A stretch of 64,000 bases of DNA from an uncultured Actinomycetes bacterium (GTDB lineage: Bacteria; Actinomycetota; Thermoleophilia; Gaiellales; Gaiellaceae): positions 141,050 to 205,049 of the forward strand of contig CAVZJU010000003.1 of the NCBI GenBank assembly GCA_963775695.1, read 5' to 3'. Positions within the stretch are counted from its first letter, which is position 1, and every line of letters begins with the position of its first letter. The notes beneath the pieces are model-generated. The model did no database searches. It was not told the origin of the DNA and worked only from the letters and a program-made list of their open reading frames with translations. The position numbers and the translations under genes are program-made. Below, in pieces: positions 5,511 to 22,499 of the stretch.

Positions 5511-5588
5511 GGCGGCGGAGGAGTAAACGGGTTCCCGCGGCCGAGAACGGCCGAACGTCCTGGCCGGCACGTACGATCGCCGGGTCTC

Positions 5589-5635
5589 GGCGATGAGGCC
5601 CGCCGCCAACCGCCCGTGAGGCTGATGGCTTCTAC
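5589..5635 (+). promoter_or_regulatory. fluoride riboswitch (crcB motif), copy 1
   Basis: GGCGATGAGGCCCGCCGCCAACCGCCCGTGAGGCTGATGGCTTCTAC. Contains P1 (GGCG/CGCC), the AACCGCC block and GGCTGATGGCTTCTAC, with pseudoknot GAGGCC:GGCTTC. Closely resembles the Thermotoga petrophila crystallised aptamer as I recall it (GGCGAUGAGGCCCGCCCAAACUGCCCUGAAAAGGGCUGAUGGCCUCUAC). Confidence 0.85.
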
Positions 5636-5651
5636 GAACCAGGAGGTGCCT

Positions 5652-5888
5652 GTGATGCCGGGACGGGTTCGTGAGCCGAGGTACGACGTATCCCTCGAAC
5701 GCAAGATCGCCTGGGGAGCCGCGACGTTTGTCGCCGTCTCCGTCGTCGGGCTCCGGCTGGAGCCTGGTCTGCGCCTCGTGTGGATAGTGGCGCTGGTCTT
5801 CGGCGCGGGCGCGATCGGCACGATCGTGGGCGGCCGACTCGGCCGACCCACGATTCGGGGGCGGCGGTTGCGGCGCGGCTCGCGCTGA
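5652..5888 (+). CDS. small 2-TM membrane protein (unknown function)
   Basis: AGGAGG at 5641-5646, then GTG 5652 / ATG 5655. Product MPGRVREPRYDVSLERKIAWGAATFVAVSVVGLRLEPGLRLVWIVALVFGAGAIGTIVGG... First ORF after riboswitch 1. Confidence 0.5.
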   Translation: MMPGRVREPRYDVSLERKIAWGAATFVAVSVVGLRLEPGLRLVWIVALVFGAGAIGTIVGGRLGRPTIRGRRLRRGSR

Positions 5889-5898
5889 GCGCGTTTCG

Positions 5899-6363
5899 AT
5901 GAGTCTGCAGATCGAGATTCCTGGCAGGCCACCGCTCTCCCTGGACCATGTCGTCCTCGACGTCAACGGCACGCTCACCGATCGTGGGCGTCTCCTGGAC
6001 GGCGTCGGCGTTGCAGTCGAGCGGCTTCGGAGTCACGTCGGCGTCCTGCTCGTCTCCGCCGACACCTTCGGAACGCTGGAGCAGATCGGCGAGGATCTCG
6101 GCGTCGAGACGCGAACCGTTCGCGGTGGCGTGGACAAACGGCGGCTGGTGGAGGAGTTCGGCCCGGAACGCACGGCGGTGATCGGCAACGGGACGAACGA
6201 CGGTCCGGCGCTTGCGGCGGCGGCCGTCGGCTTGGCAGTGCTCGGACCCGAAGGGACGAGCGGAGATGCCGTGCGTGCCGCGGACGTTCTCTGCCGGTCG
6301 GTGGTGGAGGCAGTCGAGCTCCTTCTCGATCCGAACGCTCTGGCCGCCACCCTTCGGCCCTGA
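5899..6363 (+). CDS. HAD-superfamily protein, soluble P-type-ATPase-like (COG4087-like)
   Basis: LDVNGTLT (DKTGT-like phosphorylation motif) and GNGTNDGPAL (GDGxNDxPAL hinge-like). 154 aa, no TM segment. Confidence 0.8.
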   Translation: MSLQIEIPGRPPLSLDHVVLDVNGTLTDRGRLLDGVGVAVERLRSHVGVLLVSADTFGTLEQIGEDLGVETRTVRGGVDKRRLVEEFGPERTAVIGNGTNDGPALAAAAVGLAVLGPEGTSGDAVRAADVLCRSVVEAVELLLDPNALAATLRP

Positions 6364-6505
6364 GTTCGTGAGCTGGCCGGACAGCCCGAAGGAGTGCACC
6401 CGCTGCCGCTTCTCGCGCCCTTCGAGACGCCGTCGCGCGACGACGCCGGGTACGAGATCGTCGGCTGCTGCCGAAACCCCCGCATCGGCATGGACCTGTT
6501 CGCTT

Positions 6506-7768
6506 TCAGACGTCGCGATCCGGATCTGATGGAGCCCTGCCCGTCCTTTCGTCCCGGGACACCGGATTGACTGCCCCGCCGGAGAGCACCGAAACCGCCA
6601 TCCATCCGGCTGCGTAGAAGAAGGCCGCAGTCGGGGAGACCAGAGTCCACAGCAGACCGACCGCCGCCGACGAGCCGAAGTCGCCGAACGACTGCACCCC
6701 CCCGAGCACTCCGAAGCCGCTCCCTCGCAGTCGGTCCGGGAGGAGTCGCGCGACGAGCGCCGACTCGGCGGTCTCGGCGAGCCCGATCCCGCCGCCTGCG
6801 AGGAAGAACGGCACGACCAGAAACGGCCACGACTCGAGTGGCAGGGCGAACAGCGTGTACGCAACGACGTAGAGGAGGCCGCCCGTTGCGAACACGATCC
6901 TGGGCCCGACGCGGTCGAGCCAGTGGCCTCCTCCGTAGGCGGCGAACGTGGCGACCAGGTTGTGGCCGGCGTAGATCAGGACCGCGATCGAGGTCGCGGC
7001 GGTGAGGGAGCGCTCTCCGTGGTGGAGGAGCGTCGTCGCCCGGAGGATCAGGAGAGTCGTCGCCATGTTGCCGAGCTCGAAGGCGGAGATGGGCAGCAGC
7101 GGGCGCATCAGACCGGCTTCGCGGAGACCCGAGAAGTCGAAGCGGGCGCGGCGCGGGACAGCGTGGTGGGCGCGCCGCGCCTCGGCCGCTGCCACCGTGA
7201 TCGCCGCCGCCGCGAAGAACCCCGGAACGGCGGAGAGGTAGAGCGTCGGTCGGATCCCGATCCAGGCCACGAGCCCGGCGGCCAGGAGCGGACCGGCGAC
7301 GGCACCGAGATTGTCCCCGGCCCGCTCGAGGCCGAAGGCCCGCCCGTAGGTGGACGGCGAGGCGAGTGAGGCGAGCATCGCGTCGCGGGCCGGCGAGCGC
7401 ACACCTCGGGCCAGCCACGCGCCTGCGCGGAGGAGGCCGACCTGCCAGACCGTGCTCGCGAGTCCGAGGGCTCCGGTGGCTGCCGCGGTGACGACGTAGC
7501 CGCCTGTGGCCAGCCGCAGTCGGCGCGACTCGTCGTTCGCGAGCGGGCCGCTGATGAGCTTCGCGACCCCCGTGAGACCGTCGCTGATCCCTTCGATCAG
7601 CCCCAGGGCGCCCGCGGAGGAGCGGAGGACCACGGTCACGAAGCTCGGCAGCACCGAGGTCGCGATCTCGTGGCCGAAGTCGCTGAAGAAGCTCGCGACG
7701 CCGATCCCGGCGACGCCGCGGGTCAGCCACGAGCGGCGACCCTCGGCGGTCGTCTCGGTCGTCGTCAT
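6506..7768 (-). CDS. MFS transporter
   Basis: ATG at 7768 gives MTTTETTAEGRRSWLTRGVAGIGVASFFSDFGHEIATSVLPSFV... About 12 TM. Lies 25 nt downstream of the MutS-like pair on the same strand. Confidence 0.85.
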   Translation of the reverse strand: MTTTETTAEGRRSWLTRGVAGIGVASFFSDFGHEIATSVLPSFVTVVLRSSAGALGLIEGISDGLTGVAKLISGPLANDESRRLRLATGGYVVTAAATGALGLASTVWQVGLLRAGAWLARGVRSPARDAMLASLASPSTYGRAFGLERAGDNLGAVAGPLLAAGLVAWIGIRPTLYLSAVPGFFAAAAITVAAAEARRAHHAVPRRARFDFSGLREAGLMRPLLPISAFELGNMATTLLILRATTLLHHGERSLTAATSIAVLIYAGHNLVATFAAYGGGHWLDRVGPRIVFATGGLLYVVAYTLFALPLESWPFLVVPFFLAGGGIGLAETAESALVARLLPDRLRGSGFGVLGGVQSFGDFGSSAAVGLLWTLVSPTAAFFYAAGWMAVSVLSGGAVNPVSRDERTGRAPSDPDRDV

Positions 7769-7793
7769 CGCCCGAGCGAGCCGTTCCGCGCGA

Positions 7794-9320
7794 TCAGCGG
7801 GCCGTCCGTGCCTCTGCGGCGTTCGACTCGATTCCGAAGACCCTGCGGTAGGAGTCCTCGCCGTAGCTCGTCGGGAGCGGCTCGCCCTTGACGATACGGA
7901 ATGTCCTTCGGCCGCCGCTCCCGCGTTCGGCACGCAGGAACAGGGTGGTGTCGAGGCGCTGCGCGTGCAGGGTGTGCGCAAGGTCGTAGAGGTGGGTGAC
8001 GAAGAAGACCTTCACCCCGGAGTCGAGCATCGCGCGGATCACCTGGCGGGCGATCTCGGAGCCTTCCCGCTCGTTGGTCGCGGCGAACGACTCGTTGCAG
8101 AGCAAGAGGCAGCCCGGGGTGATCTCATCGGCGATCGCGCTCATCCTGGCGAGCTCCTCGTCGAGCTTCCCGCTCTCCATCGATTCGTCCTCCTCGCGCT
8201 TGTAATGGGTGAAGACGCCGCTGACGACGCCGGCCCGGAGGAATGCAGCGGGGGCGAACAGCCCGCACTGCATCATCAGCTGCGCGATGCCCGTGCTCCG
8301 CAGGAACGTCGACTTGCCGCCCTGGTTCGCGCCCGTGATCATCACGAGCGACCTGCCGTCCGCGTCGACGTCGTTTCCGACCACGCGTGGATCGAGGTGC
8401 AACGAGAGCGCCGCGTCGTACAGGTTCTCGGCGCTGAAAGCAGTGGCATTCCGGTCGACCGGTTCGGGGAAGCAGATCGGCTCGCCCTTCTCCGTCAGCC
8501 TCGCGTGCAGGTTCAGCGCCCCGAGGTAGAAGGCGATCTCGGCCCGCAGGACGGTGAAGAAGCTGACGATGTGGTCGGTCGACTGGCCCACGGCGTTGGC
8601 GACCAGGTTGGTGCCCTTGCCGCGCAGGTCGTCGAGCGCCTTGAAACCCGCCTCGTCCCGCGGCGGGATCGTGAAGCTGCGGCTCGGCGGCCCCTGCCCG
8701 GGGATGCGCTCGAGCCAGCCTCGCCGGCGGGGACGGCGCAGAACGTGCCCCACGCCCCTGTTGGCCCTTCCCAGACGCGCGCTCATGAGCTCTCCGCGGT
8801 CGAACTTCAGCTCCTTCAGGTAGCGGCGGAGAACGCCGAGGTACTCGTCGTCGAGCTCGGCCCGGAGCATGCCGAAGAACCGCTCGAACGCGTCGGAACG
8901 GAAGCTCGGCGCTTCCTCGTCGGCGAGCTTACGCAGGCGCTCGAGGACGTCGACGAGCGCCTGCAGCACCTGCACCGAGCTGTGCAGGATCATCCCCGGC
9001 GACGCGTGCCTGAGGCCGAAGAACAGGCTTGCCTTCCGCGGCGCGTTGACGGCCTCGACGGCCAGGTCGTAGATCGCCCTGACGGTCGCTTCGTGGGCCA
9101 GGCAGTCGGCCAGGACCTGTTGCCGGTACCGGATCTCTTCCCGCGTTCGCAGGTTCGCGAGCAGACCCTTGCCGGCGATCCCGCGCAGGAAATCGTCGCC
9201 CGCGGCCATCGCCTCGACCAGGGTCTCCAGCTCGAGGTCCTGGATCAGCGCGTCGGCGTTGGCCGGTGGCTCGCGCTCGACGTCGAAGTCGCGGTCGGCG
9301 TGCATGAGGAAGACCCTCAT
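7794..9320 (-). CDS. MutS-domain-V ATPase (MutS-related, no mismatch-binding domain), paralog B
   Basis: ATG 9320 overlaps the upstream stop (ATGA). Walker A GANQGGKST. Walker-B region LLLCNESFAATNEREG (NE instead of DE). Confidence 0.85.
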   Translation of the reverse strand: MRVFLMHADRDFDVEREPPANADALIQDLELETLVEAMAAGDDFLRGIAGKGLLANLRTREEIRYRQQVLADCLAHEATVRAIYDLAVEAVNAPRKASLFFGLRHASPGMILHSSVQVLQALVDVLERLRKLADEEAPSFRSDAFERFFGMLRAELDDEYLGVLRRYLKELKFDRGELMSARLGRANRGVGHVLRRPRRRGWLERIPGQGPPSRSFTIPPRDEAGFKALDDLRGKGTNLVANAVGQSTDHIVSFFTVLRAEIAFYLGALNLHARLTEKGEPICFPEPVDRNATAFSAENLYDAALSLHLDPRVVGNDVDADGRSLVMITGANQGGKSTFLRSTGIAQLMMQCGLFAPAAFLRAGVVSGVFTHYKREEDESMESGKLDEELARMSAIADEITPGCLLLCNESFAATNEREGSEIARQVIRAMLDSGVKVFFVTHLYDLAHTLHAQRLDTTLFLRAERGSGGRRTFRIVKGEPLPTSYGEDSYRRVFGIESNAAEARTAR

Positions 9321-10870
9321 GACGCGACCCGCTCCCGCAGCCGTTCGTACGTGAGACCGTACTTCTCGGCGATCGCCCAGGCGTAGGCGCGTCCGTCGGC
9401 CGGCCGGCGGACGAGCTTGAAGGTCCGAAGGGCGGGATTCCCCGGAACGACGGTGCTGACCATGCTGACCGTCGCATCGCTGAGCGACGCGAGCTCGTCC
9501 ACGAAGGTGACGTAGACACCGAGCAGGTCCAGGTCGAGCAATGCCCTCAGCACCTCGGTCCCGATGAAGAGCGCGTCGCTCAGCGTCGTCGACCCGAAGC
9601 TCTCGTTCATGACGACCACGCTCTCCGGGGTCGCCTGCTCGAGGATCTCGTGGACGCGGACGAGCTCGTCGTCGAGCTTGCCGCGGAGCGTCTCGATGTC
9701 CTCCTCGCGCTCGAAGTGGGTGAAGATGCGGTCGGGCAGGAAGAGCCGTGCCGCACTCCCGGGGACGGGGAGGCCGAGACTGGCCAGATGGTGGAGCTGT
9801 CCGAACATGCGGGCGAAGGTCGTCTTGCCCCCGTTGTTCGGCCCGGTGACGACGATGCACCGTTCCGTCCCCCGAAGCTCGAGGTCGTTGCAGACCACCG
9901 TTCCCCGCTCGGAGACGAGCTTGAGCGCCAGGGCGAGGTCGAAGGTCTCCGACGCGGTGGTGTCCTTCGAGCGTGCCGAGACGTGCGGGAAGCAGAATCG
10001 CAGGCCGACCCGCTCGAGCGGCTCGATCAGCTCGAGATACGCGACGTAGAACTGAATCTCGCGGTCGAAGCGGACGATCGCCGGCTCCAGGAAGTCCGCG
10101 TGGCGGCTGCAGAAGGCGTCGAGGGCGCCGAACGGGTCCGGGTTCAGCTGCGCGACCAGGGCCAGGATCTGCCCTTCGACGTGGCTCATGTGCGGCCACT
10201 CGCGCAGCTCGAGGAGGTAGCTCTTCGCGGCCCCCTGCTTGAACCGGGCAAATGTCTGCTCGACCTCCGCGCTGTAGTCCGGTTCGCCCGCATACCCGGT
10301 GACGGTGACGCGGGGCCCGTTGATCTGGACGGCGTAGACGACCTCGCCGAGAGCCTCCTCGACCGTACGCCCCTCGGTCTCGAGCGAGGCAAAGGCGTCC
10401 GAGGCCACGTAGCTCTCGAGACAGGCGGCGAGGGACCGGAGGCCGCGGGATGTGACGTCGAGCGAGGAGAGCTCGTCGGCGAGGGTGCGGACGCTTGCGC
10501 AGTAGGTGCCGGCGGCGTCCAGGAACCAGCGCTCCCTCTCGAAGTGGTACCGCCGGTCGCCCGCCTGCGCCAGGTACGTCCGTGTCGTCCGCATCCGATC
10601 GGCGAACCGGCGCACCGAGGCCATCACCTGGTCGTTGCGCAGGTCGCGGACGACCTCGTGCCGGTAGCGGACCGTCTCCACGTCCCGTTGCGCTGCCTGG
10701 AAGAACGGCTCGAGCTCGTACTCCTCGCGCCCGGCGGTCAGCCCCGCCAGCACCTGGTCGAGGTTCAGGTCGGCGAAGGAGTCCGGCTCGGCGGTCGCCT
10801 CGCCAGCTGGCCGCCCCGGAAAGAGGACTGTTCGGAACTTCCCAGCTTCCCGCCCGTTGCGATCCGCCAT
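9317..10870 (-). CDS. MutS-domain-V ATPase (MutS-related), paralog A
   Basis: 517 aa. Walker A GPNNGGKTT. Walker-B region VVVMNESFGSTT. Start codon is 25 nt downstream of riboswitch copy 2. Confidence 0.85.
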   Translation of the reverse strand: MADRNGREAGKFRTVLFPGRPAGEATAEPDSFADLNLDQVLAGLTAGREEYELEPFFQAAQRDVETVRYRHEVVRDLRNDQVMASVRRFADRMRTTRTYLAQAGDRRYHFERERWFLDAAGTYCASVRTLADELSSLDVTSRGLRSLAACLESYVASDAFASLETEGRTVEEALGEVVYAVQINGPRVTVTGYAGEPDYSAEVEQTFARFKQGAAKSYLLELREWPHMSHVEGQILALVAQLNPDPFGALDAFCSRHADFLEPAIVRFDREIQFYVAYLELIEPLERVGLRFCFPHVSARSKDTTASETFDLALALKLVSERGTVVCNDLELRGTERCIVVTGPNNGGKTTFARMFGQLHHLASLGLPVPGSAARLFLPDRIFTHFEREEDIETLRGKLDDELVRVHEILEQATPESVVVMNESFGSTTLSDALFIGTEVLRALLDLDLLGVYVTFVDELASLSDATVSMVSTVVPGNPALRTFKLVRRPADGRAYAWAIAEKYGLTYERLRERVAS

Positions 10871-10894
10871 CCGCTTCCACCACCAGTAGGTTCG

Positions 10895-10941
10895 GTAGAA
10901 GCCATCAGCCGCTCTGGCGGTTTCAGGCGGGCTTCATCGCC
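10895..10941 (-). promoter_or_regulatory. fluoride riboswitch (crcB motif), copy 2
   Basis: Minus-strand sense: GGCGATGAAGCCCGCCTGAAACCGCCAGAGCGGCTGATGGCTTCTAC. Pseudoknot GAAGCC:GGCTTC is fully Watson-Crick. Confidence 0.85.
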
Positions 10942-11015
10942 GCTGACATCCTACCGCTGGCGGCCGTTCCCACGCCGGTCGCGGCCGGTTCTGCGTGCGG
11001 CTGGATTTCGTTGCA

Positions 11016-11064
11016 GCGCGATGAGGCTCCGCGCCCAACCGCCGCTCCGGCTGATGGCCTCTAC
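11016..11064 (+). promoter_or_regulatory. fluoride riboswitch (crcB motif), copy 3
   Basis: GCGCGATGAGGCTCCGCGCCCAACCGCCGCTCCGGCTGATGGCCTCTAC. Pseudoknot GAGGC:GCCTC. Divergent from copy 2. Confidence 0.8.
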
Positions 11065-11090
11065 CGACTGGCCCTCGAGGGGGAGTGGTG

Positions 11091-11210
11091 ATGGAGGTCA
11101 AGGTTCGGGCAATCGTCGTCTGCGGGAACCGGCTGCTGGTCACCCGCGAACGCCGCCGGGCAGCCGAGCACTCCTCGCTGCCGGGAGGTCGCGTCAAGCG
11201 CTGGGAGTAG
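11091..11210 (+). pseudogene. 39-codon NUDIX-hydrolase N-terminal stub
   Basis: Hand-found ATG 11091 to TAG 11210: MEVKVRAIVVCGNRLLVTRERRRAAEHSSLPGGRVKRWE. This reads like a NUDIX N-terminus up to LPGG, but the NUDIX box (GxxxxxExxxxxxxREUxEExGU) is absent. Confidence 0.35.
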
Positions 11211-11488
11211 CGGATGTCACCTGTGCGGTCGTAGTCCGCGAGGAGCGCTCGGACGCGCGCCGGCGTCTCCGACGGACCGGTGCAGGAGAACGCCAGCCTG
11301 GCGTCGCGACTGCTCTTTCCTGCTCGCCAGAACGACGACATCCAGCGCTCTTCGTCTTCGAAGATCGTCCGGCGGAGCGGACAGCCACTGCGAGCGAAGG
11401 GCTCGACGAGGTCGAGGGCCAGGAAATCGGCCACCGGAGAGGCCTCCCTCCCGGCTCCGGCCCGAGCCAGGTCGTCTCGTGCCTCCGC

Positions 11489-12001: not shown

Positions 12002-12032
12002 GGCTACTCCTTGATCTCCTCGATACTCCGGA

Positions 12033-12470: not shown

Positions 12471-14440
12471 CAGTGACGGAGGGCTGGGATCATGGCGAGT
12501 GCTCCTAGCAGGACGAGAAGGACATACAGCAGGTAGAAGCCGAGCCGGCCCGACTGCAACCGGCGGGTGAAGCCGGAGAGCCGAAGGCCGGCGGCGACGA
12601 GCGGCTCGTACAGGTAGTGCTCGAAGGCCGGCACCACGCGCGTGGTGAGCATGAAGCGCTCCGGCTGCCTCCCGCCCCCCTCGGCGTGGATCGTCCTGCG
12701 AAATCCGTAGACACCGGCCAGGACGACGCGGATCGGATTGGTGTAGGCCTCTGGCGTGTATTGGACGACCGCGATGTCGGGTGCGGCGCCGGAGAGCCAC
12801 ACCGGCGCACGACGCACCGACGGCTTCAGGAGCACGCGGACGAGAAGGGCGGCCGCGATCAGGAACGTCGGGATCGCCAGCGCCAGCCACGTCGGCGAGA
12901 GGACCGAGAAGTTTCCGTAGACGGGGCCGAGGACCAGCGGGTGGGTGACGGCCGTGCCGGCCGGGTCGAAGCCGAGGACGCCGCTCAGCCCTTCGCCGAG
13001 CCAGCGGATCTCCCACGGCGCGGCCGCCCCGAGGAACAGCAGGGTGACGCCGAACGCGACGAAGCCGATGCCTCCCCGGCGGGCCTCGGGGGCCGGCTCC
13101 TGCGGGTGACGTGGACGCCCGAGGAAAATTCCACCGAAGAGGCGGGCGAAGGCGAGCAGCGCGATGCCGGCGGTGAGCGCGACCATCGCGCCACCGAGCG
13201 CCATGAACAGCTGCGCGTCCGAGTCCTTCAGACGAAACCCTTGCAGGAGCGCCTCCAGGGTGAACCACTCGCTGACGAATCCGCCGAATGGAGGCATCGC
13301 CGCAAGTGTGAGGACCGCGAGTCCGAAGCCCAGAGCCGTCCCCGGAAGCTTTGCCGCGAGGCCTCCGAGCGGCGCGGTCGTCCGCTCCCCGGTGGCCTCG
13401 GCGACGCTTTCCGCGCCCAGGAACGCCCCCGCCTTCGCGATTCCGTGCATGATCACGTGCAGGGTCGCGGCGAGGAGTCCCGCCGCCGCCAGCTCCGGCT
13501 CGTTGCTGCCCTGCCCGATGAGGGCGACTCCGAAGCCGAGGAGCGCGATGCCCCCGTGCTCGACGCTCGAGAAGCCGAGGAACCGCTTCACGTCGTCCTG
13601 CACCACCGCGTAGAGGATCCCGGCGATGGCACCCAGACCGCCCAGCACGATCAGCAGCTCTCCCCACCAGAGCGGCGCAGGTGCGAGCGTGCCGTAGACG
13701 AGGCGCCAGAGCCCGTAGAAGCCGCCGTTGAAGGCGACGGCGATCGTCGCCGCCGTCGCAGCGGGAGCAGCCTGGTACAGACCCGGGAGCGGCACCTGGA
13801 AGGGAAGCAACCCGATCTTGGTGCCGAAGCCGACGAGCAGGAGGACGAACGCGACGTCGCGGGTCGTGCCGAGGCCGGCCGCGGCGTGCTGCCAGGCGCT
13901 GAACTCGAAGCTTCCGGTCTGCCCGTAGAGCAGCCCGAAGGCGGCGAGGATCGCAGCACCGCCGATCTTGTTCACCGCCGAGGCGAAGTAGCCGGCCGCG
14001 AGCGCAGCCGGACGGTCGCGATCCAGGCTGCCGAGGATGTAGAGGCAGACGCTGAGGGTCTCCCAGGCGAGGAGGAAGACGAACCCCTGATTGGCGCCGA
14101 GGACGGCGGCGAGCGCAAGGATGACGAGGCTGTGGAGGGTCGCGGGCGACCGGCGAGTCGGACGCTCGGCGAGAGCGACGGACACTGCAGCGGCCGTCCC
14201 GCCGACCAGCGCGAGGAAGATGCCGCTGAGCCGGTCGGCGACGAGCGCGGAGGGGCCGAATCCGAGCCACGTCCCGAGACCCACGCGAGCTTCCGACCAC
14301 CCCCCCGCGCTGACGACTCCGACTGCGCAGAGGAGCGCGGATGCGACGGCCGCCGCACCCAGGGCCGGGCGAGGCCGGAGCAGGGCGAGTCCGGCTGCCC
14401 CGCAGAGCACGAGGAGGGCTGCTGCGAAGACGCCGTTCAC
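12470..14440 (-). CDS. HyfB/HycC-like (NuoL-like) antiporter-type membrane subunit
   Basis: 656-aa polytopic protein with proton-antiporter-like blocks (GFGTKIGLLPFQVPLPGLY, FLGFSSVEHGG). Confidence 0.85.
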   Translation of the reverse strand: MNGVFAAALLVLCGAAGLALLRPRPALGAAAVASALLCAVGVVSAGGWSEARVGLGTWLGFGPSALVADRLSGIFLALVGGTAAAVSVALAERPTRRSPATLHSLVILALAAVLGANQGFVFLLAWETLSVCLYILGSLDRDRPAALAAGYFASAVNKIGGAAILAAFGLLYGQTGSFEFSAWQHAAAGLGTTRDVAFVLLLVGFGTKIGLLPFQVPLPGLYQAAPAATAATIAVAFNGGFYGLWRLVYGTLAPAPLWWGELLIVLGGLGAIAGILYAVVQDDVKRFLGFSSVEHGGIALLGFGVALIGQGSNEPELAAAGLLAATLHVIMHGIAKAGAFLGAESVAEATGERTTAPLGGLAAKLPGTALGFGLAVLTLAAMPPFGGFVSEWFTLEALLQGFRLKDSDAQLFMALGGAMVALTAGIALLAFARLFGGIFLGRPRHPQEPAPEARRGGIGFVAFGVTLLFLGAAAPWEIRWLGEGLSGVLGFDPAGTAVTHPLVLGPVYGNFSVLSPTWLALAIPTFLIAAALLVRVLLKPSVRRAPVWLSGAAPDIAVVQYTPEAYTNPIRVVLAGVYGFRRTIHAEGGGRQPERFMLTTRVVPAFEHYLYEPLVAAGLRLSGFTRRLQSGRLGFYLLYVLLVLLGALAMIPALRH

Positions 14441-15207
14441 GCTGCTGCCTCCCGGGTGACGACGCCGGACGCCAGAAGCAGTCCGTGCAGGACCGCGATC
14501 GGGCTCGGCGGAGATCCCGGGACGTAGACGTCGACCGGGAGGACCCTGTCGACGCCGCCGGCCACTTCACCTGTCTGGGCTGCGAGACCGCCGGAGCAGG
14601 CGTCGGTACCGGCGGCGACGACCGCCTTGGGGTGCGGCATGACCTCGAATGCGCGAAGGAGGGGTGCCTCCATCGAGGGGGTGACTCCACCGGTGACGAG
14701 GAGGATGTCGGCGTGCCTCGGAGACAGCGTGAAGAAGAGGCCGAGGCGCTGCATGTCGTAGAAGGGGTTCGTCAGCGCGGCGATCTCCCACTCCTCGGCT
14801 CCGTCCGAGCCGGCGTCGACGTGCCTGACGTGGATCGAGCGGCGGAGCGTGCGCGACTGCTGTCCGAGGCTGCGACGCGGCTCGCCGGTCGCGCCTTCGG
14901 GATCGTTCACGACGAGCGCGCCGCGCCGGCGTGCTGCCGTCTCGTACTCGGGCTCGAATTCGAAGCGGCTCGGATCGGCGGCGACGCAGGCGCCGCAGAG
15001 GATGCAGCGGCCGCGGTCGACGGAGACGCGGCCGCCGCTGCTCCTGATCGCTCCGGTCGGGCAGACCGCTTCCAGACCTGCCGGCGCCGGCGTGTCGCTC
15101 CTGAGACCGACCCGGCCGCGAAAGCCGGGAGGGGCCGCCTCAGGACGCCGCGGGTATCGGGTCGTGACGATGCCGCGATGCAGGCCGCGGGGGATCCACT
15201 CCAGCAT
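14437..15207 (-). CDS. fusion of a HycF-like ferredoxin remnant and a HycG/NuoB-like small subunit; most FeS cysteines missing
   Basis: N-terminal part retains VCPTG...CILCGACVAADP. C-terminal part is NuoB-like (LSPRHADILLVTGGVT...PKAVVAAGTDACSGG...LPVDVYVPGSPPSP). It has GSDGAEEWE and PGSPP where the canonical motifs are GSCxxCE and PGCPP. Confidence 0.75.
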   Translation of the reverse strand: MLEWIPRGLHRGIVTTRYPRRPEAAPPGFRGRVGLRSDTPAPAGLEAVCPTGAIRSSGGRVSVDRGRCILCGACVAADPSRFEFEPEYETAARRRGALVVNDPEGATGEPRRSLGQQSRTLRRSIHVRHVDAGSDGAEEWEIAALTNPFYDMQRLGLFFTLSPRHADILLVTGGVTPSMEAPLLRAFEVMPHPKAVVAAGTDACSGGLAAQTGEVAGGVDRVLPVDVYVPGSPPSPIAVLHGLLLASGVVTREAAA

Positions 15208-16700
15208 CAGCGATCCGCTCCTGCCGGCGAGAGCCCGAAGCTGTGCTCGATGAACGAGAAGTCGGTGAGCACGTCGCCGCGGAAGCTGGCTGCGAAGAGC
15301 GGCCAGTTACGAAGCGACGGCGAGGAGATCCGCACCGTTCGCAGCCGACCCTCGTCCACCTCGACCCAGTAGACGAGCTCGCCCATCGGCGCCTCGGCCC
15401 AGCCGAACGCCGCTCCACTCTCGGCGGGAAGCTCGACCGTCAGCTCGCCGTCGTCCTTCTCGTCGCGCTCGAGCGACTGCCGGATCAGGTGGACACTCAC
15501 GCGGATCTCGTCGAGGCGGACCTCGAGACGGGCCATCGCGTCACACTCCTCGGCCGTGACCATCCGGAAGCCCAACCTCCGGTACGCGCCGTAGGGGCGC
15601 TCGAAGCGCGCATCGGTCGGGATCCCCGATCCGCGCGCGACGGGCCCGACGCCCGCATGGGCGTCGACCGTGGCGGGTTCGAGTGTGCCGCTTCCGATCA
15701 GACGGTCGGTGAACGAGGGTGTCCTCAGCAGGAGCCGTCGATCCCGGCGCACGTCGCGCTCGAGCTCGCTGAGAAACCGTCGTATCTCGCGGATCGGAAG
15801 CTGGGGCCCTCCGGCGACACCGCCGGTGACGATGACGCCTCGTCCGAAGCGACTGCCGCAGAGCCGCGCCCGCAGACGCATGACCTGCTCCTTGAGGATC
15901 CCGAATCGGGCGACCGCCACGGACAGGGCGGCGTCCTCTGCGAGCCGGGTGGCAACGTCGAGATGGTTCGCGATCCGCTCGAGCTCCGCGTGTACGACCC
16001 GCCAAAGCTGCGCCTTCGGCGGCGGTTCGACGCCGAGCGCACGCTCGACCGCGTGCGAGAAGGCGCACGCATGCGCGACCGACGCAATGCCGGCTACGCG
16101 CTCGGCGACCGTCGTCCCGTCCCCGGGGGTGCGACCGTTGAAGCGGCTCTCGAGCCCCCGCCGCTTGAAATACGGCCGGACCTCCAGTGCCAGGACGTCT
16201 TCGCCGCCCGTCTCGATCACGTACTGGATCGACTCGAAGACTCCGGAACGGATCGGCCCGTAGGGGATGACGAACGTCCCCTCGCCCTCCACCCGGCGGC
16301 GAAGGTTGTCCGGATCGGGGCGGACGGCCGGGGCCAGGTCCGGATGCCCGAGAGGAATGAGACCGTGGAGGTCGTGCAACTCCCGCTCCGGGAAGCGAAA
16401 TGCCGGTGACATCAGTGCAAGTGACGGAAACGACGACGTCCGGTCGATCGACGCCAGGAGGGCGACCAGCTGTCCGCGCACCGCGAAGGCGACGGCGAGG
16501 GACCGCTCCGGCTCGTCCGTGACGAACATCGCGACGAGCCGGGCGCGACGTTCGAGCAGGAGCGCCGCCGCCCGGTCGATCACTCCGATCGGCAGTCGTA
16601 GGCGCTGCTCGCCGAGCGGAGCCGGTTCGCCGACTGCGCGAAAGCGACCGTCGAGGAACTCGTGTGCGTCGCCTGCGAGCATTGCGTTCTCGGCGGTCAT
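15207..16700 (-). CDS. HycE/HyfG-like (NuoC-NuoD fusion type) 'large subunit' lacking both NiFe CxxC motifs
   Basis: ATG 16700 overlaps the upstream stop (ATGA). AERVAGIASVAHACAF replaces R-x-C-G-x-C-x-x-x-H. The C-terminus ...SFIEHSFGLSPAGADR replaces D-P-C-x-x-C-x-x-R. Only 3 isolated Cys in 497 aa. Confidence 0.85.
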   Translation of the reverse strand: MTAENAMLAGDAHEFLDGRFRAVGEPAPLGEQRLRLPIGVIDRAAALLLERRARLVAMFVTDEPERSLAVAFAVRGQLVALLASIDRTSSFPSLALMSPAFRFPERELHDLHGLIPLGHPDLAPAVRPDPDNLRRRVEGEGTFVIPYGPIRSGVFESIQYVIETGGEDVLALEVRPYFKRRGLESRFNGRTPGDGTTVAERVAGIASVAHACAFSHAVERALGVEPPPKAQLWRVVHAELERIANHLDVATRLAEDAALSVAVARFGILKEQVMRLRARLCGSRFGRGVIVTGGVAGGPQLPIREIRRFLSELERDVRRDRRLLLRTPSFTDRLIGSGTLEPATVDAHAGVGPVARGSGIPTDARFERPYGAYRRLGFRMVTAEECDAMARLEVRLDEIRVSVHLIRQSLERDEKDDGELTVELPAESGAAFGWAEAPMGELVYWVEVDEGRLRTVRISSPSLRNWPLFAASFRGDVLTDFSFIEHSFGLSPAGADR

Positions 16701-18160
16701 CGGGCGGCGAGCTGGTCGGCGGCGTGTCCGAGGAGCGTCGAGAGTCCGCTCGGAACGTGCAGGCCGAGGCCGACGACGACGACGAGGCAGGCTGCCATCC
16801 CGGCGACCATCGTCCAACTCGCCTCGCCGCGAGGGGCCCCGGGCGCTGCAGGCGAGAACACCATCCTGCCGGCGTGCCAGACGACCCCGAGGAACGCCAC
16901 GTTGACGAAGACGAGCAGCATCGTCACCCAGACGTACCCGGGGGTCGCGAAACCCCCGCTGACGATCTGGAACTCGCTTCGGAAGATGCCCGAGACGGGC
17001 AGACCGCTGAGCGCGAGGACTGCCACGAGAAACATCGGGCCGGAGACCGGCAGGGCTTGGGCCGCACCCTGCACGGAGTCGATCTCCTTGCTCCCGAAGC
17101 GTCTCAGGATCGAACCCGTGCCGAAGAAGGCCATCCCCTTCGCGGCGGCGTGGTTGAGCACGTGCAGGAGTGCGCCGGCGACCGCGATGCGCACGCCGAA
17201 GCCGATGCCGACCGCGATCACGCCCATGTGCTCGATCGTCGAGTAGGCGAGGAGCCGCTTGTAGTTCTCCTGCCGGAGAACGAAGAGCGCCGCCACGAGC
17301 AGCGATGCGGTTCCGAACACGAGCAGGACGTGGCGCGGAAAGTCCTGTCCGACTGCGAGGGCGGTCACCTGGTAGAAGCGGAGGATGGCGTAGAGGGCAT
17401 TCGCGAGCAGCGCCCCGGAGAGGAGCGCCGACACGGGGCTCGGTGCCTCGCTGTGCGCGTCCGGGAGCCAGGCGTGGAGCGGGGCGAAGCCCGCCTTGGT
17501 GCCGAATCCGACCACCGCCAGGAGGAACGCGATCTCGACCTCGGTCGCCGGCAGCTGCCCGCCGACCGAGAGATATCGCGTGAACCGCGGGATGTACGCC
17601 TGGCCGAGTGCGTTCGTTCCCGAGGCGTACAGGATGATCACCGCGAGGAGGGCGATGCCGAGCCCCACGGACGCGATCAGGACGTACTTCCACGCCGCCT
17701 CGAGCGCCGCGTCCGTCCGTTCCAGCGCGACCAGGAGAACCGAGACGATCGTGGTCAGCTCGACCGCCACCCACAGCGTGGCGAAGTCGTTCATCAGTGG
17801 GACGAGCAGCATCGTCCAGCCGAAGAGGTTGAGGTAGCCGAAGTACTTGCGGGCGAACGAGTCACGGCCGTGGTGATGCGCTCCCGCCCGCAGGAATCCG
17901 ATCGAGAAGACGCTCCCCGCCGCATACAGGAAGCTGCTTGCGAGAAGGAACACCGCTCCAAGGGAATCGAGGCGGAGCCACCCGCTGGCGGTCGTCAGAG
18001 GCACGTCATTGCGAACAGAGACAGCGGCGCTGAGCGCGAGTGCAAAGCAGGCACCCCCCGCTGCGGCGGTCGCGAGCTCGGCCGCACGCGGTGAGCCGAG
18101 AAAGGCAACCGCTGAGCCGGCCAGCGGTACGAGGACCAGGGCGATGAGGACGGCGCTCAT
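16697..18160 (-). CDS. HyfF/HyfD-like (NuoM/N-like) antiporter-type membrane subunit
   Basis: 487 aa. GFGTKAGFAPLHAWLPDAHSEAPSPVSALLSG and LAYSTIEHMG are typical of NuoM/N/MrpD-type subunits. Confidence 0.85.
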   Translation of the reverse strand: MSAVLIALVLVPLAGSAVAFLGSPRAAELATAAAGGACFALALSAAVSVRNDVPLTTASGWLRLDSLGAVFLLASSFLYAAGSVFSIGFLRAGAHHHGRDSFARKYFGYLNLFGWTMLLVPLMNDFATLWVAVELTTIVSVLLVALERTDAALEAAWKYVLIASVGLGIALLAVIILYASGTNALGQAYIPRFTRYLSVGGQLPATEVEIAFLLAVVGFGTKAGFAPLHAWLPDAHSEAPSPVSALLSGALLANALYAILRFYQVTALAVGQDFPRHVLLVFGTASLLVAALFVLRQENYKRLLAYSTIEHMGVIAVGIGFGVRIAVAGALLHVLNHAAAKGMAFFGTGSILRRFGSKEIDSVQGAAQALPVSGPMFLVAVLALSGLPVSGIFRSEFQIVSGGFATPGYVWVTMLLVFVNVAFLGVVWHAGRMVFSPAAPGAPRGEASWTMVAGMAACLVVVVGLGLHVPSGLSTLLGHAADQLAAR

Positions 18161-18161
18161 C

Positions 18162-19790
18162 TCAGCCGCGAAGCCGGTTCAGCACGTCAGTCGTGACCGA
18201 GGTGCGCTGGACGCTGAAGTACTGGACGAGGAGGACGAAGACCAGGAGCCCGATGAAGACGTCGAAGAGCAGGAGCAGGGCGAGGATCAGGGGAAGGCTG
18301 GGGGCGATGACCAGGGCCGCGAGGGTGACCCCGTTCTCGAGCACGAGGAAGCCGATCACCTGCGACGGCGCGTAGGGCCGGAGGATCATCAGGAGCAGTG
18401 CGACCAGCACGATCGCAACCGCAATGCCGAGCGCCTCCAGCGGGAGCGCTCCCTGGTGATCGAGATGGAGCCGTGAGAGGGCGATGAAGCTGAAGCTGGA
18501 GAGGACGATGCCGAGCAGCGCTGCGCTCGGCACCCGCACCGTCGACGGGACGCGCATGGACACGTCCAGCCTCGTAATGGTCGCCCCGATCGCGAGCGGG
18601 ATGGCGATCGTCTTGAAGGCGATCGTGATCGCCCCGATCACCCACAGATCGGCGTGGTGGAGCTTCGCCGCCGCTGCGAACGCGACGATTGCGACAGCGG
18701 CGGAACCGAGGCCGTACAGCCGCAGCTGCCCCCGGATGTCCTGCGTGCGTAGGAGTGCGAACTCGAGCAACAGGACGGTGACTGCGACGACGCTCGCGAT
18801 GCCGCCGAACACGGTGAGGTGGACGGTCCCGTACTGTCGCTGGAGCACGAACGTGATCACGGCCAGGACGGCGAAGAGAAAGCCGGCCACGGTGAACTCG
18901 GGGATCTTGTAAAGGCGCAGCTTCGCGAACGACGACTCGATGACGACGATCGCGGCTCCGACGACGAGCGCCTTCCCGAACAGAATCGCGATCGCCAGGA
19001 GGACGCTGTCGAGCCGCCGGTCCCCCGCCAGGCCCCACGGCGCGGTGAGGACGTTGGCGAGGATGACGAAGAGGATCATCTGCTTCATCGACGAGCCCCA
19101 CTTGAGCAGGGCGTAGCCGGGGCCGGAGTGCTCGAGCGTCCGGCCTTCCTCGATCATCCCGAACTCCAGGGTGGCCCCGTGGTTCTCCAGTGGGATCCGC
19201 CCGGTCTCGGAGATGACGACCATGAAGAACGCTGCCGCGGCGAGAAGATGAGCGGGCCGGAAGACCTCGACCGCGGACGACTTGAGCGTCGCGGCGAAGG
19301 CGTAGGGGAGGTCGGTGCCCGTGATGAGCGCGACCGAGAAGATGACGAAGATGATCGTCGGCTCGCCGAGCGCGCCGAACGTGCGGAGCCGGCTCGAGCC
19401 GAGCTGGGTATACGGGCTGCCGCTGTCGATAGCGGCCAGCGAGACGGCATAGCTTGCGAGCCCGAGCACGAAGCCGCCGCCGAGGATGTCCCCCATGTAG
19501 GCCGGTTGGGGCGGGAAGTCCGTCAGCACCGGGATCAGGAGCGGGACAACGCAGTAGCAGGCGAAGGCGACGTAGGGAGCGATCCGGAACACCGGCCCTG
19601 CCCCGTCCGGAAGGACCGTCTCCTTCCGGAAGAACTTGGCGATGTCGTGGTAGGGCTGGAGCAGCCTGGGCCCGTGCCGTCCCTGCACCAGGGCCTCGGC
19701 CCGGGCGATGACACCGGTGACCAGCGGCGAGACGAGCAGGATCGTCCCCAGCTGGAAAGCCTGGATCAGTCCGTCGCTCAGCTGCGGCAT
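18162..19790 (-). CDS. HycD/HyfC-like (NuoH-like) subunit fused to a HyfE-like (NuoK-like) membrane module
   Basis: 542 aa. N-terminal ~300 aa: LVSPLVTGVIARAEALVQGRHGPRLLQPYHDIAKFFRKE...EFGMIEEGRTLEHSGPGYALLKW (HycD-like). C-terminal ~220 aa are multi-TM and HyfE-like. First gene after riboswitch copy 4. Confidence 0.8.
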   Translation of the reverse strand: MPQLSDGLIQAFQLGTILLVSPLVTGVIARAEALVQGRHGPRLLQPYHDIAKFFRKETVLPDGAGPVFRIAPYVAFACYCVVPLLIPVLTDFPPQPAYMGDILGGGFVLGLASYAVSLAAIDSGSPYTQLGSSRLRTFGALGEPTIIFVIFSVALITGTDLPYAFAATLKSSAVEVFRPAHLLAAAAFFMVVISETGRIPLENHGATLEFGMIEEGRTLEHSGPGYALLKWGSSMKQMILFVILANVLTAPWGLAGDRRLDSVLLAIAILFGKALVVGAAIVVIESSFAKLRLYKIPEFTVAGFLFAVLAVITFVLQRQYGTVHLTVFGGIASVVAVTVLLLEFALLRTQDIRGQLRLYGLGSAAVAIVAFAAAAKLHHADLWVIGAITIAFKTIAIPLAIGATITRLDVSMRVPSTVRVPSAALLGIVLSSFSFIALSRLHLDHQGALPLEALGIAVAIVLVALLLMILRPYAPSQVIGFLVLENGVTLAALVIAPSLPLILALLLLFDVFIGLLVFVLLVQYFSVQRTSVTTDVLNRLRG

Positions 19791-19823
19791 CCGTCCCGAC
19801 GTCTCCTTGCCCTCGACTACGAG

Positions 19824-19891
19824 CTAGAAGCCATCAGCCGTCGGAACGGCGGTTCGGAGCGGGGGCCGCTCCCGCCAGAGCTTCATCTGGC
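19824..19891 (-). promoter_or_regulatory. fluoride riboswitch (crcB motif), copy 4, with an extra inserted hairpin
   Basis: Minus-strand sense: GCCAGATGAAGCTCTGGC-GGGAGCGGCCCCCGCTCC-GAACCGCCGTTCCGACGGCTGATGGCTTCTAG. Same core blocks. An 18-nt GC hairpin is inserted between P1 and the AACCGCC block. Confidence 0.8.
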
Positions 19892-20034
19892 GTCGCCAGC
19901 GTAGCGAATCGCCGACGCGGTCCGGACGGTACCGGACACGCAGGACGCAGACCTGGAACCCGAACTCCAGGCGCGCCGCCACCGGCCGAGACGGTTGGAC
20001 CGGCCCTGTTCGGCTAGGCTGATTCCACACCGGT

Positions 20035-20080
20035 CGCGATGAGGCCCGCGCTCAACCGCCTTCGGGCTGATGGCTTCTGT
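20035..20080 (+). promoter_or_regulatory. fluoride riboswitch (crcB motif), copy 5
   Basis: CGCGATGAGGCCCGCGCTCAACCGCCTTCGGGCTGATGGCTTCTGT. Divergent from copy 4. Followed by GGGAGG and ATG 20115. Confidence 0.8.
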
Positions 20081-20114
20081 GTCTTCTTCGGGTTCGCTCC
20101 AGGGAGGCGGACGT

Positions 20115-22498: not shown

Positions 22499-22499
22499 G

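Follow-up and report, generated by a model that had tools for sequence, protein, structure and literature searches.

A predicted fluoride-response gene island with five fluoride riboswitches in an uncultured Gaiellaceae bacterium

Fluoride riboswitches have been published in association with genes for MutS, formate-hydrogenlyase-type complexes, enolase, pyrophosphatase and HAD proteins (PMC2864571; PMC11139923; PMC5533749), pyrophosphatase being a classic fluoride-inhibited enzyme as well as a known riboswitch-associated gene (PMC11139923). In Enterobacter cloacae, a single riboswitch-controlled operon holds universal stress protein (Usp), pyrophosphatase and enolase genes (PMC5533749). At least 10 fluoride riboswitches per genome are given for Methylobacterium extorquens DM4 in a passage that cites Baker 2012 (PMC6785547). 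The crcB RNA of Acidothermus cellulolyticus is a proposed translational ON switch in which the Shine-Dalgarno (SD) sequence is sequestered without ligand, according to Fig. 6 of PMC3023696; the same source gives an optional hairpin for 31% of crcB-motif members, allowed only between the P1 stem and the AACCGCC linker.

The locus described here belongs to an uncultured Gaiellaceae bacterium, a soil actinobacterium of the class Thermoleophilia, and was analysed as a stretch of 64 kb (the window). Five fluoride riboswitch copies (RS1 to RS5) are packed into 14.5 kb (about 15 kb) of this window, and the region is very probably a fluoride-response gene island, with five riboswitches of this known class at the 5′ ends of five transcription units. 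Homology suggests fluoride binding and regulation at all five loci. Two pairs of units stand back to back, with RS2 and RS3 70 nt apart and RS4 and RS5 138 nt apart. The gene sets behind the aptamers differ from copy to copy, and the same aptamer-gene pairings are seen again in related genomes. They comprise MutS-related, hydrogenase-4-like, Usp, pyrophosphatase, enolase, HAD and Nudix genes, most of which are published associations. No crcB or CLC-F gene was found anywhere in the 64-kb window. Four of the units (RS1, RS2, RS4 and RS5) look functional.

Fluoride aptamers in the window

At the Rfam gathering score (34 bits for the fluoride/crcB family, RF01734), cmscan matched RF01734 at 5580–5641 (+; RS1, 47.1 bits), 10889–10950 (−; RS2, 50.2 bits), 11008–11070 (+; RS3, 38.0 bits) and 20026–20086 (+; RS5, 36.4 bits), with E-values from 6e-11 to 2e-6. 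When the whole window was scanned permissively (E ≤ 1, all 4227 Rfam families), there were five matches in total, every one of them Fluoride, and none to any other RNA family. The fifth match is RS4, at 19818–19885 (−) with 21.4 bits and an E-value of 0.16 (0.0018 with a 700-nt search). The five loci and strands proposed in the initial annotation were thereby borne out, its coordinates being right to within 2–3 nt, and its expectation that all five would exceed the gathering threshold held for RS1, RS2, RS3 and RS5 but failed for RS4 (21.4 versus 34 bits). For a second covariance model (R1), 29 orthologous leaders from other genomes served as input, the window and its two closest relatives being excluded. 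R1 places RS4 at 19824–19893 (−) with 77.3 bits (E 7e-20) and also recovers RS1 (30.0 bits), RS2 (30.9 bits), RS3 (33.7 bits) and RS5 (27.4 bits). No further convincing R1 match is found in the window, the only other one being partial (6.5 bits, E 2.9).

The conserved core of the family is kept in all five copies: P1 with a GAUGRRG loop, AACCGCC, P2, GGCUGAUGGCYUCU, and a pseudoknot of 5–6 bp between the P1 loop and the 3′ tail. This agrees with the block order already noted at the outset (P1, GAUGA(G/A)GC loop, AACCGCC, P2, GGCUGAUGGC(U/C)UCU). In each copy, P1 closes a loop of 8–9 nt that begins with AUG and bears the 5′ pseudoknot strand, and the AACCGCC linker, the short P2 hairpin and the 3′ segment GGCUGAUGRCYYCU are invariant across the five. 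All five pseudoknot pairs form in every copy, as GAAGC:GCUUC in RS2 and RS4, as GAGGC:GCCUC in RS3 and with one G-U pair in RS1 and RS5, just as first described. At one pseudoknot position, 52 of 97 distinct aptamers taken from related genomes have A:U and 44 have G:C, with a mismatch in the remaining one; on alignment A1, the pseudoknot position is AU in 20, GC in 9 and unpaired in 0.

P1 likewise covaries: its versions in the window are GGCG/CGCC, GCGC-type and CCAG/CUGG, and relatives show CG, UA and GC pair changes. The earlier statement that both helices change in sequence with pairing kept is true of P1, but not of the first three P2 pairs (GCC/GGC), which are invariant and thus limit P2 covariation within the window to the fourth pair and the loop; at this fourth pair, 19 relatives have G-C and 8 have C-G. 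In the 29-sequence alignment, 90.2% of the cells are paired, versus 83.3% in shuffled alignments and at most 56% with the partners slid, while double-change cells number 48 versus 15.5 after shuffling, a count that 0 of 500 shuffles reach. Covariance-model scores, conserved nucleotides, pseudoknot covariation, orthology and gene context together support the assignment of all five loci as fluoride (crcB-motif) aptamers, the identity originally proposed for them.

Five similar sequences of about 50 nt within 15 kb, adjoined by an IS481 transposase (22583–23554), could also recall a dispersed repeat, whether a small mobile element or recent local duplications, or could be chance matches without a regulatory role. 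Such an origin is scarcely credible here. The resemblance among the copies is restricted to the aptamer and ends at its borders, the flanks being unrelated; the copies each lie between a −10-like box (RS3 is considered below) and the SD and start of a different operon; RF01734 E-values reach 6e-11; and orthologous positions are occupied across species that have diverged to about 62% protein identity.

The RS4 leader and its operon

The RS4 aptamer (19824–19893, −) has the P1 helix CGCCAG/CUGGCG and the loop AUGAAGCU, and it represents a "hyf-leader" subclass. A hairpin, GGAGCGG-CCC-CCGCUCC in the predicted MFE fold, lies between P1 and GAACCGCC (19856–19872, −). The low Rfam score of RS4 is explained by its CCAG/CUGG P1 and by this 17-nt hairpin between P1 and AACCGCC. 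That score and the poor Rfam alignment of P1 might be read as signs of a decayed, non-functional aptamer disrupted by an insertion, but this is highly improbable, since every conserved nucleotide and the pseudoknot are intact and the orthologous operon has this architecture in front of it at each of the 80 related Thermoleophilia loci, with R1 scores of 43–79 bits. The insert itself argues against decay, as it folds as a hairpin with compensatory changes at four of five pairs and sits at the exact site of the documented optional hairpin of the crcB motif. Inserts in relatives (69 of them, 14–60 nt long) have terminal stems of 6.1 bp on average, compared with 3.2 bp after shuffling, and comprise 59 distinct stem sequences. 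The original crcB alignment has a hairpin at the same site, for example in NC_008578.1, NC_005125.1 and NC_008611.1. The RS4 subclass is lineage-wide and is under-scored by Rfam in every genome checked (about 21–24 bits, below the gathering score), so that RS4-type leaders of Thermoleophilia are missed by automatic annotation.

The first gene behind RS4 (18162–19790, −; 542 aa) encodes a NuoH/HyfC-like membrane subunit (Pfam PF00146) fused with a HyfE-like subunit, residues 333–542 of which match the NCBIfam hydrogenase 4 membrane subunit. Four more hydrogenase-4-like or complex-I-like subunits follow at 12470–18160 (−), as judged from Pfam and NCBIfam matches: an antiporter-like subunit (16697–18160), a NuoC+D-like subunit (15207–16700), a ferredoxin+NuoB-like subunit (14437–15207) and a HyfB-like subunit (12470–14440). 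The genes of this membrane complex abut or overlap. The operon continues with a Usp of 145 aa (12033–12470, −; Pfam PF00582, E 3e-28) and ends with an inorganic pyrophosphatase of 170 aa (11489–12001, −; Pfam PF00719, E 4e-46).

In the large subunit of group 4 [NiFe]-hydrogenases, the NiFe site is held by four cysteine ligands, in an RxCGxC motif near the N-terminus and a DPCxxC motif at the C-terminus. These cysteines are absent from the large subunit of the RS4 operon, in which no CxxC occurs anywhere in the protein. The window protein reads RVAGIASVAH versus RVCGICGFAH in E. coli HycE and RMCGICSFSH in the P. furiosus MBH, and the cysteine replacements hold in 73 orthologues. Identification as a group 4 [NiFe]-hydrogenase or formate hydrogenlyase does not agree with the missing NiFe cysteines; the predicted RS4 complex is like hydrogenase 4 in subunit make-up, yet should not be classed as a hydrogenase.

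The RS1, RS2, RS5 and RS3 units

Of 98 related leaders, 94 have a TANNNT hexamer that ends 6–14 nt 5′ of P1, and none of the 98 has one at a control position. It is this hexamer pattern that suggests a promoter −10 box; a strict sigma-70 scan found nothing. In the RS1 unit, the corresponding −10-like hexamer is TACGAT (5572–5577, +), 11 nt 5′ of the P1 helix. The RS1 aptamer (5586–5635, +) consists of P1 GGCG/CGCC, the loop AUGAGGCC, AACCGCC, P2 and GGCUGAUGGCUUCUAC, and is followed after 6 nt by the SD AGGAGG and a GTG/ATG start (5641–5657, +). Its first gene (5655–5888, +) encodes a small predicted membrane protein of 77 aa, recognised by its high GC3 and by the gene call on the twin contig L001; it has no significant Pfam or NCBIfam family, its sole Pfam match being below the cut-off. 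The second gene (5899–6363, +) encodes a phosphatase-type HAD-superfamily protein of 154 aa (Pfam PF00702, E 6e-6) that resembles the phosphorylation domain of P-type ATPases (region ~380–480 of NCBIfam P-type ATPase subfamily models), and its homologue is likewise preceded by an aptamer in two related genomes.

RS2 (10895–10943, −) leads an operon that begins with a MutS-related ATPase of 517 aa (9317–10870, −), which contains MutS domain V only (Pfam PF00488, E 4e-16) and scores far under the NCBIfam cut-offs for MutS. Its orthologue is aptamer-led in 16 scored leaders, the window and the twin contig included. A paralogous second MutS-related ATPase follows (7794–9305, −; Pfam PF00488, E 1.5e-18; start position taken from the L001 gene call), and the last gene encodes an MFS transporter of 420 aa (6506–7767, −; Pfam PF07690, E 6e-29; L001 gene call).

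Divergent from RS4, RS5 (20032–20080, +) precedes two overlapping genes of unknown function, encoding proteins of 141 aa (20115–20540, +) and 176 aa (20537–21067, +), neither of which matched any Pfam or NCBIfam family. Their 35 homologues are all unnamed or "hypothetical", and the pair recurs in four related genomes behind fluoride aptamers or beside other fluoride genes. About 100 nt 3′ of the second gene lies an enolase gene (21164–22498, +; Pfam Enolase_N + Enolase_C, E 1e-110). The enolase is probably co-transcribed with the RS5 unit, an assignment made uncertain by this gap and by the absence of the gene here in the closest genome, L002, which lacks the whole enolase-plus-IS481 segment (21082–23561).

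RS3 (11014–11064, +) stands before a 41-codon open reading frame (11085–11210, +) that, in alignment with full-length homologues, is an N-terminal fragment of a Nudix hydrolase gene. It aligns with residues 6–42 of aptamer-led Nudix proteins (136–147 aa) of two related genomes, and the equivalent aptamer-led protein of a third is a member of Pfam NUDIX. An association of Nudix genes with fluoride riboswitches was reportedly noted by Baker in 2012. RS3 is probably a recent relic, an intact aptamer before a Nudix remnant. That all five copies, RS3 included, are working switches and that the 41-codon frame is a real small gene is possible but rather doubtful. The RS3 aptamer is indeed intact, its GAGGC:GCCUC pseudoknot being fully Watson-Crick, it is followed by an SD (GGGGGAG) and a start codon, and the segment is found in the second assembly, L001, too. 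Against a working RS3, the frame stops exactly where the Nudix box of the full-length homologues is expected to start, the TANNNT box present in 94 of the 98 related leaders is absent, and the entire 0.5-kb segment (10985–11482) is missing from the closest genome.

Likely switching mechanism and comparison with known systems

In all five copies, the start codon lies 19–45 nt downstream of the aptamer 3′ end and is preceded by an SD, and no terminator (a stem followed by a U-run) was found at any of the five aptamers or behind it, which makes a translational ON switch the likely mechanism. The conserved core would enclose F− via three Mg2+ ions, as is reportedly the case in the Thermotoga petrophila aptamer solved by Ren and colleagues in 2012. 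In the absence of fluoride, the ribosome-binding region would be paired with the 3′ tail or the P2 strand; when fluoride is present, the pseudoknot would keep the nucleotides of the tail or P2 strand within the aptamer, and translation would begin. Control of transcription termination, as in the Bacillus cereus crcB riboswitch, is improbable at these loci. Transcriptional control is found in many characterised fluoride riboswitches, and many members of the motif have a terminator that overlaps it (PMC2864571), but no stem and U-run accompany the five aptamers, the start codons are just 19–45 nt away with the SD inside or beside the alternative pairing, and a translational platform is proposed for the actinobacterial Acidothermus crcB RNA in the legend to Fig. 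6 of PMC3023696. Rho-dependent effects may also occur at the five switches.

Competing alternative structures are convincing, as predictions, for RS2 and RS4. RS2, in its predicted free fold, has the 3′ tail GCUUCUACC base-paired to the SD region GGUGGUGGAAGC. In RS4, the P2 region CCGUUCCGACG is predicted to form an 11-bp helix with CGUCGGGACGG, the latter abutting the AUG, and the two segments co-change in relatives (GUCCCGAC/GUCGGGAC, GUUCCGAC/GUCGGAAC and GCCGG/CCGGC). The OFF-state duplexes of RS1, RS3 and RS5 (z-scores of 0.0, +0.5 and −0.5) are not better than shuffled. On average, the predicted accessibility of the SD goes from 0.09 in the free ensemble to 0.42 with the aptamer locked, and it rises in 46 of 54 leaders. 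This shift is only suggestive because locking any upstream segment tends to increase downstream accessibility. On aptamer locking, the predicted value for RS1 goes from 0.44 to 0.66, and the RS5 SD is predicted to remain paired.

The local density of the five copies, initially called unusually high for a riboswitch class, is so only against textbook organisms: 13 of the 80 related Thermoleophilia loci hold 4–6 aptamers per 21.6 kb, and judging from the related loci such clustering is common to this whole class of soil actinobacteria. No publication describing such physical clustering in soil actinobacteria was found. M. extorquens DM4 and Streptomyces cattleya are alike in having many riboswitches of the same class and a broad regulon in one genome, but the passages concerning them (PMC6785547; PMC11139923) give genome-wide counts, whereas here five copies are clustered in 14.5 kb, often in divergent pairs. 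The genomic island GI3 of E. cloacae FRM similarly places fluoride-inhibited enzymes (pyrophosphatase, enolase) and a Usp under a fluoride riboswitch, with one riboswitch and six genes including the exporter crcB, compared with five riboswitches and five units here (PMC5533749). Unlike GI3, the present island adds the membrane complex and the MutS-like ATPases. The A. cellulolyticus crcB RNA (NC_008578.1) is also an actinobacterial aptamer with the optional hairpin; its model, as presented in PMC3023696, is likewise a prediction, and the alternative helices predicted here (RS4 P2 with the pre-AUG segment, RS2 tail with the SD) are lineage-specific.

With the RF01734 crcB motif (Weinberg et al., 2010, PMC2864571), the five copies share the core, helices, pseudoknot and 5′-UTR position, together with mutS-related, formate-hydrogenlyase-like, enolase, pyrophosphatase and HAD gene classes, so that the larger gene classes behind these aptamers are already known associations. 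Nothing differs in kind, the RS4-type leaders of Thermoleophilia combining a CCAG/CUGG P1 with the hairpin. Given the similar clusters in relatives, the island clearly illustrates biology that is already known and is not a new kind of element.

Identity and structure of the five aptamers

Four aptamers exceed the gathering score (34 bits) of RF01734, the Rfam fluoride riboswitch family, in a scan at that threshold: RS1 at 5580–5641(+) with 47.1 bits, RS2 at 10889–10950(−) with 50.2 bits, RS3 at 11008–11070(+) with 38.0 bits and RS5 at 20026–20086(+) with 36.4 bits. RS4, at 19818–19885(−), was matched when the whole window (70% G+C) was scanned permissively, with 21.4 bits and an E-value of 0.16, or 0.0018 when the search was limited to 700 nt. 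This permissive scan, which covered both strands and 4227 families at E ≤ 1, returned five matches in total, all to RF01734, and no other RNA family in the window. The initial annotation was thus right to read these loci, on their respective strands, as fluoride riboswitches, whereas its expectation that all five would pass the gathering score holds for RS1, RS2, RS3 and RS5 but not for RS4. The Thermotoga petrophila aptamer sequence with which it compared them had no match in a full-text literature search and is made dispensable by the Rfam model. Fluoride binding by the five aptamers would follow from their family membership.

When the five copies were aligned with 40-nt flanks, their likeness was restricted to the aptamer, and so the loci do not represent copies of a longer repeat. 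The pairings previously assigned to the loop/3′-tail pseudoknot are correct. Among 97 distinct aptamers of related genomes, pseudoknot pair 2 is A:U in 52, G:C in 44 and mismatched in one, while pair 3 is A:U in 67, G:U in 16 and G:C in six. Both P1 and P2 had been described as varying in sequence while remaining complementary. The P1 helices do differ within the window (GGCG/CGCC, GCGC-type, CCAG/CUGG and CGCG/CGCG), but P2 pairs 1–3 do not vary, which confines P2 covariation in the window to the fourth pair.

A lineage covariance model (R1) was trained on 29 orthologous leaders (alignment A1), from which the window was excluded along with its twin contig (L001) and the closest genome (L002). 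It recovered RS4 at full length with 77.3 bits (E 7e-20) and the other four aptamers with 27–34 bits. No further convincing R1 match was found in the window, the sole extra being partial (6.5 bits, E 2.9).

The RS4 leader subclass and aptamer clustering in Thermoleophilia

On the minus strand, RS4 reads ACGCCAG-AUGAAGCU-CUGGCG, followed by the hairpin GGAGCGG-CCC-CCGCUCC (19856–19872), inserted after P1, and then by GAACCGCC-GUUCCGAC-GGCUGAUGGCUUCUAG. The P1 sequence and the hairpin insert cause the Rfam model to misalign RS4 P1. Relatives of the first gene behind RS4 were fetched from 185,579 species genomes, yielding 80 loci, all from Thermoleophilia metagenome-assembled genomes (MAGs) or isolates. 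The best orthologue (96% protein identity) is from a Gaiellaceae MAG, and one locus (L056) belongs to Conexibacter sp. S30A1. In most of these loci the aptamer core lies 70–80 nt upstream of the gene, and GAUG and AACCGCC are 28–56 nt apart, compared with 15–17 nt otherwise. The 69 distinct inserts (14–60 nt) have complementary end stems with a mean length of 6.1 bp (3.2 bp in shuffled sequence), 59 different stem sequences and a mean fold z-score of −2.7; by this complementarity, the RS4-type insert is a hairpin. With the pseudoknot counted as one of four helices, 90.2% of cells in A1 are paired; shuffles reach 83.3%, and sliding the partners leaves no more than 56%. Doubly changed cells number 48, against 15.5 in shuffles, and none of 500 shuffles reached the observed value.

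The RS4 hairpin is not new, as it is already documented in the crcB family. A hairpin was reported for 31% of crcB RNAs in the R2R paper (PMC3023696), and in the original crcB alignment it is what separates P1 from the GAA/AAA-CCGCC linker, in sequences that include Acidothermus NC_008578.1 and Gloeobacter NC_005125.1. RS4 is a normal member of the family and falls in a subclass under-scored by Rfam. The R1 scan found an RS4-type leader in all 80 loci. In L002–L081, where it sits about 70–110 nt upstream of the gene at 10001, it scores 43–79 bits with the lineage model. With RF01734, such leaders score about 21–24 bits, above the gathering score in none of nine loci checked, and hence are not annotated by pipelines. 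This is a blind spot of Rfam, in that an orthologous leader subclass of the hydrogenase-4-like operon would go unrecognised by standard annotation in every Thermoleophilia genome.

The same R1 scan (1.48 Mb, each locus up to 21.6 kb) found 156 aptamers, with one in 46 loci, two in 12, three in nine, four in eight, five in three and six in two. Five or six are present in each of L051, L024, L060, L081 and L011 (21.6 kb each); for each of the first three, the Rfam model independently returned six matches, all of them Fluoride. Divergent back-to-back pairs 21–120 nt apart, like RS2/RS3 and RS4/RS5, occur in at least 15 loci and so place two promoters and two riboswitches in one short intergenic region. 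The local density had been singled out as unusual. Five copies in 14.5 kb are indeed at the upper end for the clade, yet with four to six aptamers in 13 of 80 loci, such clustering is a habit of the clade, not a singular event.

Predicted promoter placement and switching

A strict sigma-70 promoter scan gave no sites, which is uninformative for an actinobacterium of 70% G+C, and a positional TANNNT test was used in its place. Of 98 leaders, 94 have a −10-like TANNNT whose end lies 6–14 nt (mode 8) ahead of P1, and none has one at the control position. The hexamers in the window are at 5572–5577, 10948–10953, 19898–19903 and 20015–20020. Such sharp placement suggests that transcripts probably start no more than a few nucleotides from P1, so that the mRNA would open with the aptamer itself.

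None of the aptamers is overlapped by a terminator-like site, and start codons lie 19–45 nt downstream. In the proposed mechanism, the Shine-Dalgarno (SD) sequence would be mostly paired in the free state and become accessible once the aptamer is locked, giving a translational ON switch. Predicted SD accessibility increases from a mean of 0.09 in the free ensemble to 0.42 with the aptamer locked, an increase seen in 46 of 54 leaders. In RS2, the pseudoknot 3′ strand GCUUCUACC is predicted to pair with GGUGGUGGAAGC. In RS4, an 11-bp helix is predicted between the P2 region and the segment separating SD and AUG (proposed anti-RBS strands CCGUUCCGACG/CGUCGGGACGG), and both of its strands change together in relatives. 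Solirubrobacterales leaders are predicted to have the tail GCUCC-UUUCGCG opposite CGCGARAGGAGC. Duplex-energy z-scores between aptamer and ribosome-binding region (mean −1.1 over 101 leaders; 0.08 in a narrower design) do not suffice to demonstrate an expression platform in any single leader, and this analysis contributes only the co-variation seen in Gaiellales RS4-type leaders. Alternative pairing in RS1, RS3 and RS5 was no better than in shuffled sequence. A translational ON switch is predicted with good support for RS2 and RS4, and may extend by analogy to RS1 and RS5.

RS3 is one of only four of the 98 leaders without a TANNNT hexamer 6–14 nt upstream of P1. Its 41-codon ORF is a Nudix N-terminal fragment that matches residues 6–42 of the full-length (136–147 aa), aptamer-led Nudix proteins of relatives and ends at the start of the Nudix box. 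In the closest genome, 28 bp stand in place of the 0.5-kb segment containing RS3 (10985–11482). RS3 is probably a relic, a recently stranded riboswitch, although the 41-codon ORF may instead be a working small ORF. If RS3 is a relic, its loss would be recent, since the aptamer is intact. An inverted Nudix C-terminus at 11210–11434(−), with a 9-residue match (E 0.004, single comparison) as its sole support, was not relied on.

Gene content and comparison with known fluoride regulons

Genes were assigned by GC3 frame analysis, Pfam and NCBIfam. RS1 precedes a 77-aa membrane protein and a 154-aa HAD-type protein resembling the P-type ATPase phosphorylation domain, while RS2 precedes two MutS-domain-V ATPases and an MFS transporter, and RS3 only its truncated ORF. 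Seven tightly packed genes follow RS4, encoding a NuoH/HyfC-HyfE fusion, antiporter-like, NuoC+D-like large, ferredoxin+NuoB-like and HyfB-like subunits, a universal stress protein (Usp) and an inorganic pyrophosphatase. RS5 is followed by two overlapping genes without a known family, and about 100 nt further on by enolase. Among 106 leaders, window and twin contig included, 69 precede the membrane complex, 16 the MutS pair, four a Nudix gene (in L008 with enolase directly after it) and two a HAD gene; crcB, PAP2, IclR, DUF190 and DUF6062 genes are also aptamer-led in relatives. The twin contig from ENA is 99.5% identical to the window over the 1.3 kb compared. Its NuoH-like and second MutS-like genes are split into several short called genes, probably an artefact of frameshift errors in the assembly and not a biological feature.

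The two-gene module behind RS5 (20115–21067(+); about 142 and 176 aa, overlapping by 4 nt) recurs in fluoride gene neighbourhoods of other metagenomic contigs (L082–L085), where it follows either a fluoride aptamer or a Na+/H+ exchanger, is divergent from MutS-like genes, or lies beside MutS-like genes and enolase. Neither the 141-aa nor the 176-aa protein matched a Pfam or NCBIfam family. The AlphaFold model of the former is all-helical (pLDDT 88, pTM 0.50) and had no match among PDB folds (best E 8). The 2.5-kb segment at 21082–23561, comprising enolase and an IS481-family transposase (22583–23554), is absent from the closest genome; in L083, enolase follows the same two genes without the transposase.

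The large subunit (15207–16700) of the RS4-operon complex (12470–19790(−)) is without all four NiFe-ligating cysteines, reading RVAGIASVAH where HycE has RVCGICGFAH and ending in ...GLSPAGADR, with no CxxC motif anywhere. The same replacements occur in 73 orthologues. Judged by these residues, the RS4 "hydrogenase" is a complex-I-like module, not a formate hydrogenlyase, and in this clade the "formate hydrogenlyase" long tied to fluoride riboswitches is a complex-I-like module without a NiFe site. A literature search found nothing relevant linking NiFe-less hydrogenase-related complexes to fluoride. No crcB exporter gene was detected in the 64-kb window by tblastn with a CrcB from L008 (best E 0.13), and Pfam scans of its remaining larger ORFs with high GC3 revealed neither CrcB nor CLC. 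The hydrogenase-4-like operon is directly followed by one or two crcB genes in 17 related loci (L023–L074, about 17800–18600), whereas in the window Usp and pyrophosphatase occupy their place. A speculative and rather doubtful reading is that this riboswitch-run module, not an exporter, is the fixed centre of the Thermoleophilia fluoride regulon, acting as a redox-driven or antiporter-type ion pump that offsets the fall in cytoplasmic pH and in proton-motive force brought about by HF influx. As many as six units, each with its own switch, would be gathered round it, including MutS-like ATPases, the conserved pair behind RS5, Nudix, HAD, pyrophosphatase and enolase. If true, this would account for a gene association unexplained since 2010.

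Most gene classes behind RS1–RS5 are published fluoride-riboswitch companions. PMC2864571 reports mutS and formate hydrogen lyase, and PMC11139923 reports pyrophosphatase, HAD, enolase, formate hydrogen lyase and Na+/H+ antiporters; a ppaC-uspA-eno-gpmA-crcB operon is described in PMC5533749. The window elements belong to a thoroughly characterised family whose variant feature is already documented, and for riboswitch biology generally they bring nothing new, as the class, optional hairpin, mode of action and larger gene associations have all been described before. What they still offer is the Rfam blind spot, the clade-wide clustering in soil Thermoleophilia and compact, testable candidates for unexplained fluoride-defence functions, namely the NiFe-less complex-I-like module, the paired MutS-like ATPases with their MFS transporter and the conserved two-gene module. 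Clustered sets of four to six switches with a broad regulon in abundant soil actinobacteria (Gaiellales, Solirubrobacterales) should be useful to studies of fluoride and organofluorine stress in soils. Elsewhere, genome-wide counts are high in S. cattleya (PMC11139923) and reportedly reach at least 10 in M. extorquens DM4 (PMC6785547).
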